Virus record (IMG/VR): IMGVR_UViG_2671180430_000009
Location: 1-5,651 of that record
DNA: 5,651 nt
Direction: 5' to 3' (one strand)
DNA from: a virus
Lineage: Duplodnaviria > Heunggongvirae > Uroviricota > Caudoviricetes
The position numbers were made by a program, and so were the translations under genes. The notes below the pieces were generated by a model. It had not been told where the DNA came from. It saw only the letters and a program-made list of their open reading frames with translations, and ran no database searches. Positions 3,693 to 5,269 of the stretch are shown here, piece by piece (the first letter of the stretch is position 1; each line of letters opens with the position of its first letter).

Positions 3693-3790
3693 ATATTGTG
3701 TGGGAATGTCTGACTCCTTACCATCTCCTGTTCTGTGATGTTGTTTTGTTGCAGTTCCAGTGCTCTTTTTTCAGCACCAGAATGGTGCAT
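3446..3790 (-). CDS. IS600-like OrfA (HTH transposition regulator) with atypical or replaced N-terminus
   Basis: Residues from ENQLSISEGASRLSLPEGTLGQWV to the C-terminus match IS600 OrfA as recalled, including the leucine-zipper-like tail and the slippery run near the 3' end. The first 35 codons of this ORF (MHHSGAEKRAL...VRSQTFPHNIVF) lack the conserved helix (..EFKAEAV..) seen in IS3-family OrfA proteins. Possible starts are ATG 3790 or ATG 3724, neither with a well-spaced SD. Confidence 0.6.
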   Translation of the reverse strand: MHHSGAEKRALELQQNNITEQEMVRSQTFPHNIVFENQLSISEGASRLSLPEGTLGQWVTAARKGLGTPGSRTVAELESEILQLRKALNEARLERDILKKATAYFAQESLKNTR

Positions 3791-4113
3791 TGTCGGTCAG
3801 GTTACGTAGTGAACCTCTGGCAGGGGACTGATGATTCATCATTCTGGTGTTGTAAATATCTCTTCGGACAACTTACAAAATATTCTAAGCAAACCCCGGG
3901 AACACACTCTTAACTGCCTTGGCTGGCGGTTTTTTGTACAGCGCTCGGTATGTGTGAGCTGGAAATCAGATTTTGCATGGACTGGAATCATGCTGTTATT
4001 TAGGGGCGAAGAACTGGCTTTTTCTTCCGCCTTCTCACCAGTAACGATTAGAAAAATAATGAAATGCCCCCCTCCGGGGAGGAGGACCGTAGAAAAAAGG
4101 ACCCGCCAGCAAA
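3790..4113 (+). repeat. Copy A of a 324-bp direct repeat (noncoding)
   Basis: 3790-4113 matches 4946-5269 with only 2 mismatches (3833 G vs A, 3836 T vs G) and no indels. The preceding CA dinucleotide is also shared. No credible ORF inside. Confidence 0.9.
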
Positions 4114-4625
4114 CAGCCCACTGGTTTTCTTGCGAACAGGTCGAGAACAACGGCGAGGTACGCCCAGCGCTTACCCGTCCAGATATAGGTCACATCACCG
4201 CACCACACCTGATTTGGCTCGGTCACGGCGAACTGCCTTTCAAGGTAGTTAGGGATAGCAACATGTTCATGACCACCACGTTTATACCGGTGAGTCGGCT
4301 GCTGACAGCTGACCAGCCCCAGCTCTTTCATGAGCCTGCCAGCAAGCCAGCGTCCCATCTGGTAGCCTCTCCGGGTTGCCATTGTGGCGATGCTTCTTGC
4401 TCCGGCCGAACCGTGGCTGATGCCATGTAGCTCAAGTACCTGACTGCGTAATACAGCCCGTCTGCCGTCTGGTTTTTCAGGACGGTTTTTCCAGTATCTG
4501 TAGCTGCTGCGATGAACCCCGAACACATGGCAGAGTGTGACCACAGGATAATGCGCTCTGAGTTTCCCGATTATCGAGAACTGTTCAGGGAGTCTGACAT
4601 CAAGAGCGCGGTAGCCTTTTTTAAT
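4114..4625 (-). pseudogene. insO: IS911 orfB (insO) 5' fragment, truncated after about 143 codons
   Basis: -1 frame relative to orfA from the slippery site. IS3-type sequence through ...[33 protein letters not shown], then the frame runs into repeat copy A and gives unrelated residues ([10 protein letters not shown]...). Catalytic C-terminal half is missing. Confidence 0.8.
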
Positions 4626-4873
4626 ATTTCATTCTCCATTTCAATGCGTTGTAGCTTTTTCCTCAGCTTACGTATTTCGATTTGTTCTGGTGTTATCGGA
4701 GAGGCTTTTGGTGTTTTGCCCTGACGCTCATCACGCAGTTGTTTGACCCATCTTGTCATTGTGGAAAGGCCAACATCCATAGCTTTGGCGGCATCTGCCA
4801 CCGTGTATTTCTGGTCAACAACCAGTTGAGCGGATTCGCGTTTAAACTCTGCGCTAAAATTTCTTTTTTTCAT
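4571..4873 (-). CDS. insN: IS911 OrfA (InsN), 100 aa
   Basis: Product [53 protein letters not shown]...[11 protein letters not shown] matches IS911 OrfA as recalled. Start ATG at 4873 (the ORF-track start at 4909 is an upstream in-frame extension). A6G slippery heptamer at 4625-4631. Confidence 0.9.
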
Positions 4874-4945
4874 TGGAGCACCTGTGTTGTTCTGAGGTGA
4901 GCATATCACCTCTGTTCAGGTGGCCAAATTCAGTGTGCCACTTCA

Positions 4946-5269
4946 TTGTCGGTCAGGTTACGTAGTGAACCTCTGGCAGGGGACTGATAATGCATCATTC
5001 TGGTGTTGTAAATATCTCTTCGGACAACTTACAAAATATTCTAAGCAAACCCCGGGAACACACTCTTAACTGCCTTGGCTGGCGGTTTTTTGTACAGCGC
5101 TCGGTATGTGTGAGCTGGAAATCAGATTTTGCATGGACTGGAATCATGCTGTTATTTAGGGGCGAAGAACTGGCTTTTTCTTCCGCCTTCTCACCAGTAA
5201 CGATTAGAAAAATAATGAAATGCCCCCCTCCGGGGAGGAGGACCGTAGAAAAAAGGACCCGCCAGCAAA
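4946..5269 (+). repeat. Copy B of the 324-bp direct repeat, abutting the IS911 IRL tip
   Basis: See copy A. Starts immediately after the terminal CA of IS911 IRL (4944-4945); identity ends at 5269 (GCCAGCAAA), after which the sequence continues toward the holin gene. Confidence 0.9.

Follow-up and report, generated by a model that had tools for sequence, protein, structure and literature searches.

Two versions of a prophage spacer flank a truncated IS911 in a Shigella-type contig: a probable by-product of recombination between paralogous prophages

Introduction

How does a stretch of more than three hundred nucleotides come to lie, in the same orientation, on both sides of an incomplete insertion sequence? 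The question is raised by a 5,651-nt stretch of caudoviricete DNA (IMG/VR record IMGVR_UViG_2671180430_000009, positions 1 to 5,651), referred to here in its entirety as the window, in which a truncated IS911 is flanked by a long direct repeat. A preliminary description of this DNA attributed the arrangement to a recent duplication, brought about either by some form of IS-mediated rearrangement or by a repeat start that draws in insertions of the IS3 family. In Shigella, prophage remnants are characteristically rearranged by IS elements and by illegitimate events.

The repeat and its surroundings

A repeat scan followed by base-by-base comparison of positions 3790–4113 (copy A) and 4946–5269 (copy B) defines a direct repeat of 324 bp with two mismatches (G/A at 3833 and T/G at 3836) and no indels, exactly as first described. 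The dinucleotide CA precedes both copies, such that identity extends from positions 3788 and 4944 and covers 326 bp in all. A repeat of this length is far beyond chance, and its presence in the window is real. The ends of the two copies also proved to be as reported: the left inverted repeat (IRL) tip of IS911 (...CCACTTCA at 4945) directly adjoins the start of copy B, which itself runs on into native phage DNA as far as a holin gene, and the right end of copy A (4113/4114) is fused to coordinate 832 of IS911, within orfB. The further suggestion that both copies follow the terminal CA of an IS holds for copy B (4944–4945) and fails for copy A, as the CA at 3788–3789 is native phage DNA. This follows from the contiguity of positions 3688–3789 with copy A in every uninterrupted locus described below. 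Similarity to IS600 already ends at 3687, 102 bp to the left of copy A, at around coordinate 126 of the element, which is an internal position, the IRL tip being missing.

The anatomy of the whole window was established by comparison with annotated genomes of Escherichia coli, including enteroinvasive strains (EIEC), and with full copies of the IS elements. At the left edge, positions 1–90 correspond to the terminal 90 bp of IS1, which we take to be the end sequence of that element; position 1 aligns inside or beside the IS1 InsAB gene in complete genomes, where the same 90 bp are found again at a second IS1 copy. This is followed by ninB-like, DUF1364 and Q-like genes (426–1866) and, on the plus strand at 2056–2366, by a prophage cluster of four tRNAs (CAT, Arg-TCT, Thr-TGT and Gly-TCC) that was detected by ARAGORN and Rfam. 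The cluster lies within a 412-bp segment (1956–2367) that is an exact repeat common to several prophage types, with 100 % matches starting at 1956 in loci of both the A and the C type defined below, and which can thus be used as a homologous anchor. Positions 2368–2548 (plus strand) constitute a tRNA-to-holin spacer, here termed type 2, that belongs to a different prophage type from the one carrying the repeat unit.

The remainder of the window is assembled from IS fragments and from native pieces of a second, type 1 spacer. IS600 occupies 2549–3687 on the minus strand (1139 of 1264 bp, 99.7–100 % identical to annotated copies), with an intact right (IRR) tip at 2549 and approximately 125 bp missing on the IRL-proximal side. 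At joint J0 (3687/3688), this internal IS600 position meets native type 1 spacer, of which the first 102 bp (N-left, 3688–3789, plus strand) end in CA and lead into copy A (3790–4113, plus strand), which carries G3833 and T3836. Joint J1 (4113/4114) connects the end of copy A with coordinate 832 of IS911, which is present on the minus strand at 4114–4945 as a fragment of 832 of 1250 bp (99.8–100 % identical to annotated IS911) that retains orfA, the beginning of orfB and, at 4945, the IRL tip. As orfB is cut at 4114, the fragment lacks 418 bp, that is the IRR and the 3' part of orfB, and is therefore immobile. Joint J2 (4945/4946), in contrast to J1, brings the first base of the unit next to a genuine IRL tip. 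Copy B (4946–5269, plus strand), with A and G at the two variable sites, is continued by further type 1 spacer (N-right, 5270–5489, plus strand), which follows the unit without a break in every natural locus and in which a terminator scan located a terminator-like hairpin (5423–5449). The window closes with the 5' part of a class II holin gene (5490–5651, plus strand), which runs off its right edge; the RefSeq annotation of L001–L003 likewise places the holin 220 bp past the unit.

The repeat unit is an ordinary piece of prophage spacer

The repeat unit is part of the non-coding spacer that runs from a prophage tRNA cluster to the holin. It was found as a single, uninterrupted copy in more than 30 Shigella and EIEC loci, distributed over nine of 5,426 complete E. 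coli genomes (one of which, CFSAN029787, is an EIEC strain), S. flexneri SFBU1023, E. coli ECMA0423 and 25 IMG/VR contigs. All of the uninterrupted loci have the same order, namely tRNA-Gly, 33 bp, N-left, unit, N-right and holin, and in 30 of them N-left is 100 % identical to the window and contiguous with the unit. Whether the unit occurs once in related prophages or is a repeated small element had been raised at the outset; it occurs once, always in this context, and it is prophage spacer and not the terminal region of a known IS, which had also been contemplated.

Other identities for the unit were considered and discarded. Rfam recognises no known RNA in it and RefSeq annotates no CDS there, and it is accordingly neither a known RNA nor a known coding gene; some annotators, though not others, call a 97-aa 'hypothetical' ORF in this region, which also contains terminator-like hairpins. 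The unit is absent, as a phage module, from 50,697 deposited phages. An IS end, a MITE-like sequence or another mobile element was likewise rejected, given the one context shared by more than 30 loci and terminal sequences that, inspected by eye, are not inverted repeats of one another. An 84 % homologue of the right half of the unit plus N-right lies in a remnant of a lambdoid lysis region, which is found beside iss on large plasmids and also in many chromosomes (the one inspected being ST131), and the alignment with this homologue passes straight over the right boundary of the unit. Thus, the unit is not an entity in itself, being delimited simply by the insertion point of IS911 on one side and the J1 breakpoint on the other.

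The proposal that the start of the repeat resembles an inverted repeat and so attracts IS3-family insertions finds nothing to build on. The native flank of the unit matches the inverted repeats of IS911 and IS600 at 6–11 of 36 positions, a level equalled by 84–86 % of shuffled sequences. Nor does the site behave as a hot spot, since a single IS911 insertion, shared by descent, is found there, and IS600 breaks off 102 bp from it, within the element.

The two mismatches are inherited alleles

Across 35 natural copies of the spacer the two variable sites always change together; approximately 15 copies carry G/T, as copy A does, and approximately 18 carry A/G, as copy B does. Copy A is identical to the corresponding stretch of about 15 natural single-copy loci, and many uninterrupted loci match it at 100 % over N-left as well. 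The allele of copy B is found unchanged both in uninterrupted form (L011, L051) and linked to the IS911 tip (L012, L017). The mismatches are therefore an inherited, linked haplotype and not mutations that arose after a duplication. The inference of a recent duplication from so few differences is accordingly not supported: as these differences already separate natural spacer copies, they cannot date one.

Three source loci

Each portion of the window has a counterpart elsewhere. Locus A is the uninterrupted type 1 prophage spacer described above and matches the core of the window (3688–4113). Locus C, which is found on its own in other genomes, consists of the type 2 spacer with a full-length IS600; it gives a 100 % match to window positions 1–3687 in complete genomes of 4.8–4.9 Mb, including L042, L045 and L049. 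The type 2 spacer itself (2368–2548) matches only L004, L005, L026, L035–L038 and L041–L046, and never the type 1 loci.

Locus B, also found on its own, contains a full-length IS911 with its IRL tip on the unit, followed by N-right and the holin (L017, L021 and the complete genomes L044 and L047). The exact 30-mer across J2 occurs in these same four and in L012; J2 is thus an older junction common to other strains. In addition, the 832 bp of IS911 in the window are 100 % identical to the full-length copies of L017 and L021 at this site, other IS911 copies differing at 1–10 positions. The flank on the IRR side of the locus B element is variable, being the tRNA region in L047 (at the equivalent of window position 2126), IS600 from coordinate 706 in L021 and unrelated sequence in L017; in these three N-left never occupies that side. 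The complete genome CP061367.1 has loci C and B oppositely oriented and separated by 1.1 Mb, and hence the arrangement seen in the window requires additional rearrangements.

Two joints without homology

J0 and J1 are of a different nature from J2. At both, the parental sequences share 0 bp of microhomology. An imperfect match of 16 of 18 positions lies just to the left of J0 (p of about 0.01 before correction for four tests), and the flanks of J1 share no similarity.

Neither joint was encountered again in any collection that was searched. The 30-mers across J0 and J1 are absent from IMG/VR and from the JGI metagenomes, and 12 variants of the ORFs spanning the two joints gave no hit on exact look-up in a collection of approximately 15 billion proteins that holds thousands of Shigella assemblies. 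Comparison of complete E. coli genomes with the unit (5,426 genomes) and with window positions 2300–5651, and of the deposited phages with the whole window, returned no J0 or J1. A 29-mer from the end of the unit recovered no J1 from IMG/VR or from a GTDB set with one genome per species, all four GTDB copies continuing natively. Natural copies carry no IS at the position of J0 or of J1, and about 30 copies of the right end of the unit are all native across 4113/4114.

Two apparent precedents were dismissed. An IS600 fragment that seemed to end at J0 in complete genomes reflects the end of the query sequence, and L012, in which two copies of the unit are 1280 bp apart, is a scaffold with N at the joint and so does not count as a second independent case. 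Its IS911 part stops 30 bp past the last copy-specific SNP, as a contig end at k=31 would; by our own reading, the J0 and J1 breakpoints, unlike this contig end, stand at no fixed k-mer distance from distinguishing SNPs.

A probable recombinational origin of the repeat

These observations make it somewhat probable, in our estimation, that the repeat represents two pre-existing versions of the spacer that were brought together by ectopic recombination, half homologous and half illegitimate, between paralogous prophages. The window would then be put together from three lambdoid prophage remnants, paralogues of one another within a Shigella-type and probably S. sonnei-like genome: the 426-bp core would have been contributed by locus A, the left arm (1–3687) by locus C and the right arm (4114–5651) by locus B, where IS911 would already have landed at the start of the unit before the joining took place. 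The outer side of each arm would have been joined through homology, by way of the tRNA cluster on the left and of the unit, N-right and holin on the right; the inner side of each would end in a homology-free break at an arbitrary point within an IS, at J0 in IS600 and at J1 in IS911. Several routes could have led there: ectopic repair of a break, deletion between collinear copies, or an event akin to homology-facilitated illegitimate recombination. The anatomy, the existence of three separate source loci, the assignment of the alleles and the character of the joints are observed here; the succession of events and the enzymes behind the illegitimate joints are inferred. On this reading, J1 falls to the right of the point at which homology between loci A and B begins, and the window consequently contains both the A and the B version of the unit. 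The 324-bp repeat would therefore be a by-product of recombination, and not a target-site duplication or the product of a transposase. Among the forms of IS-mediated rearrangement put forward in the preliminary description, the evidence favours recombination between prophages over the transpositional options.

The anchors that such a process demands are in place: A-type loci have the 412-bp tRNA repeat in common with the left arm, and the unit, N-right and the holin in common with the right arm. The homeology of 16 of 18 positions flanking J0 is of a kind met in biological illegitimate recombination and is counted here in favour. Against this reading stand the absence of J0 and J1 from every other assembly searched and the distance between loci C and B, and two homology-free joints within 426 bp of each other are an unusual coincidence. 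A total lack of microhomology, as at J1, is also atypical of spontaneous illegitimate recombination in E. coli. Because multi-copy IS sequence lies between the joints, verification of the linkage depends on reads.

Alternative explanations

The most serious competitor is an assembly artefact, which we regard as unlikely but by no means negligible. The contig could be chimeric, or J0 and J1 could be real and the assembler could have passed from the multi-copy stretches of IS600 (1139 bp) and IS911 (832 bp) to the wrong neighbours, in which case copies A and B would not truly be 1156 bp apart. Such an error would explain an arrangement that is unique among all the collections searched and that joins loci distant from each other in a complete genome. 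The beginning of the window 90 bp inside IS1 resembles the end of a draft contig, the 412-bp tRNA repeat is threaded inconsistently in related drafts (L012 and L015 depart from the path taken in L037, L038 and the complete genomes), and the sole other two-copy case, L012, is the N-containing scaffold. However, assemblers do not make joints between sequences that share no bases, so that J0 and J1 need supporting reads, and the breakpoints are unlike k-mer-limited contig ends. The IS911 fragment is, moreover, 100 % identical over its full length to the copy at locus B. Recombination between prophages and assembly error both fit the data better than any of the models that rely on a transposase. 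Among the latter, an IS911 event in situ would have joined the IRL at 3789/3790, made an abortive or one-ended copy as far as coordinate 832, joined the second strand 324 bp away and later undergone gene conversion. One genuine tip, one internal end and a direct repeat that begins exactly at the tip are what it would leave behind, and first-strand transfer in the IS3 family has been proposed to be 'sloppy' (10.1101/2023.06.07.543989). It is nevertheless improbable: J2 pre-exists in other strains with a full-length IS911 that copy A does not adjoin, the two copies carry different natural haplotypes, and no recurrence was found. J1 involves no IS tip and hence no transposase chemistry, and IS600 has a similar internal joint without any repeat. 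The one-ended transposition that had been envisaged for this locus, and a long target-site duplication, are likewise not supported, a single IS tip being present and the other joint lying inside the element.

Another scheme of this group invokes two IS911 insertions, at the left and right boundaries of the unit in different prophages, followed by homologous recombination between the two elements and by loss of the 418 bp nearest the IRR when the element's own end attacked position 832. It accounts well for the intact native flank of J1 and for its lack of microhomology, as attack by the element's own end needs no homology, and recombination between IS copies is common in Shigella. On the other hand, none of the approximately 30 copies of the right end of the unit has an IS at 4113/4114, and at least three events would be needed, besides a parallel set for IS600 at 3687/3688 that is likewise without precedent; we give the scheme a slim probability. 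An abortive copy-in, by analogy with the insertion of a 5'-truncated LINE, might join one IS end, copy part of the element and close hundreds of bases away, thereby producing very long target duplications. It could take its basis from the fact that both truncated IS3-family elements keep one perfect tip and a homology-free internal end, one of them being flanked by the 324-bp repeat, but we judge it very improbable. Least probable of all, and to be given scarcely any weight, is that the unit constitutes a small element in its own right, either mobile or attractive to ISs. The CA before both copies and an imperfect 31-nt inverted repeat across the start of the unit would suit such an element. 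Its constant genomic context and its non-natural boundaries, the right one of which is crossed by the 84 % plasmid homologue, argue otherwise, as do a flank that is not IR-like, the lack of an Rfam hit and the absence of the unit from deposited phages.

Comparison with known systems

The reading of the window as a product of recombination between prophages places it closest to homology-facilitated illegitimate, or one-sided ectopic, recombination. In both, homology anchors each foreign arm at one side, and the opposite side closes in an illegitimate joint; the donor breaks off at an arbitrary point (here, inside an IS), and the position of the joint decides whether recipient DNA is replaced or duplicated. 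Naturally transformable bacteria receiving linear DNA are the setting in which homology-facilitated illegitimate recombination was described. The event in the window would, in contrast, be intragenomic, and J1 lacks microhomology.

With regard to the IS elements themselves, the IRL tip with its 5'-TG...CA-3' end, orfA and the start of orfB are those of IS911, a member of the IS3 family, at 99.8–100 % identity, and J2 is a normal junction between tip and target; the window differs from an IS911 insertion in containing only coordinates 1–832 of 1250, without the IRR and the last 418 bp. A target-site duplication in this family measures 3–4 bp and lies outside both tips, whereas the repeat measures 324 bp (326 bp with the CA), is bounded by one tip and one internal breakpoint, and consists of different alleles. 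Abortive transposition and IEE-type excision also concern IS3-family elements and can remove IS ends, but the resulting deletions are anchored at a tip and show microhomologies of 2–6 bp, whereas J0 and J1 connect internal IS positions to non-adjacent DNA and show none. Models for end-processing and deletion in the IS3 family have been reviewed (10.1101/2023.06.07.543989).

Segmental amplification offers a further comparison. A tandem duplication by unequal crossover between IS copies would place a full-length IS at the novel joint; here, the IS is truncated and J1 lies inside it. Amplification of stx between IS600 copies in S. dysenteriae 1 is a case of IS-flanked segmental amplification within a defective Shigella prophage. 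The window has in common with it the host group, the position in the prophage (from the Q/tRNA region to the lysis genes) and the IS families. The stx case depends on full IS copies and homologous recombination, whereas the joints of the window lie inside truncated elements and lack homology.

Implications

A functional consequence of the rearrangement is not evident, the prophage being already defective and the IS911 fragment lacking the IRR and part of orfB. For annotation, two cautions follow: a long direct repeat beside an IS need not be a target duplication, and few mismatches say nothing about the age of a duplication if the copies are pre-existing alleles. Should J0 and J1 be real, two more instances of illegitimate joining without homology inside an IS would be on record; should they be artefactual, they flag a mis-assembled draft contig. 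The window therefore either adds to a familiar class of events, the routine decay of a genome, or is an artefact, and reveals no new mechanism of transposition. As such, it provides one further example of IS elements and paralogous prophage remnants scrambling the chromosomes of Shigella, with little import beyond bookkeeping.

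Junctions of IS911 with the prophage spacer

The full-length IS911 of locus B, a separate prophage locus in which the IRL tip of the element lies against the 324-bp unit, is not flanked by a target duplication in complete genome L047 (7815/7816) or in L021 (5039/5040). In L047 the IRR side of the element adjoins the first tRNA gene midway along its length, and in L021 it adjoins IS600 coordinate 706. Therefore, the junction of the IRL tip with copy B of the unit (J2, 4945/4946) itself arose either through a deletion associated with IS911 or through recombination of one IS copy with another. 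The point at which IS911 is inserted in the native spacer is straddled by an imperfect 31-nt inverted repeat, detected by a repeat scan (3768-3798 and 3826-3856, with the right arm recurring in copy B at 4982-5012). The right arm holds both of the SNPs that define the two alleles of the unit, and the complementarity of the arms rises from 77 % to 84 % with the copy B allele. The alternative, type 2 spacer (2368-2548) also contains an inverted repeat, a perfect one of 14 bp (2426-2439 and 2485-2498) with a loop of 45 nt.

Two of the joints create chimeric reading frames on the minus strand. Across the IS600/spacer joint (J0, 3687/3688), an IS600 OrfA (3446-3790) has spacer-derived residues in place of its N-terminus, and across the joint of copy A with IS911 (J1, 4113/4114), an IS911 OrfB (4035-4544) is cut and then extended by 26 spacer-derived residues. 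Neither chimeric ORF was found in a collection of 15 billion proteins.

Draft joints and the common tRNA cluster

In the draft contig L012, a fragment of a lysozyme gene is separated from IS911 coordinate 312 by nothing but a single N, at position 851. The IS911 sequence stops 30 bp past the last copy-specific SNP, which suggests that it is the end of a k=31 contig, joined by the scaffolder. The type 1 prophages, whose spacer carries the unit, and the type 2 prophages have the tRNA cluster in common as an exact 412-bp repeat (1956-2367). Sequence 1-1955 runs into the type 1 spacer in L012 and a second draft contig, L015, whereas in three complete genomes (L042, L045 and L049) it runs into the type 2 spacer and IS600; this reflects either a strain difference or mis-threading of the drafts.

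The lysis region and its insertions

The right half of the unit together with N-right, the spacer segment preceding the holin gene (5150-5458 in all), has an 84 % homologue in approximately 2,000 E. coli genomes. Plasmids, in which the homologue is unannotated and adjoins Rz/Rz1 remnants and iss, account for 641 of the matching places, and it is also chromosomal in many genomes, ST131 being one inspected. It appears to be an old remnant of a lambdoid lysis region. Among relatives, the short N-right/holin region is a repeated target of IS elements, with an insertion of ~1.45 kb and a 4-bp duplication at 5480-5483 (L016 and L021), an IS600 insertion at 5579 (L007 and L026) and a repeat end at 5622 (L027).
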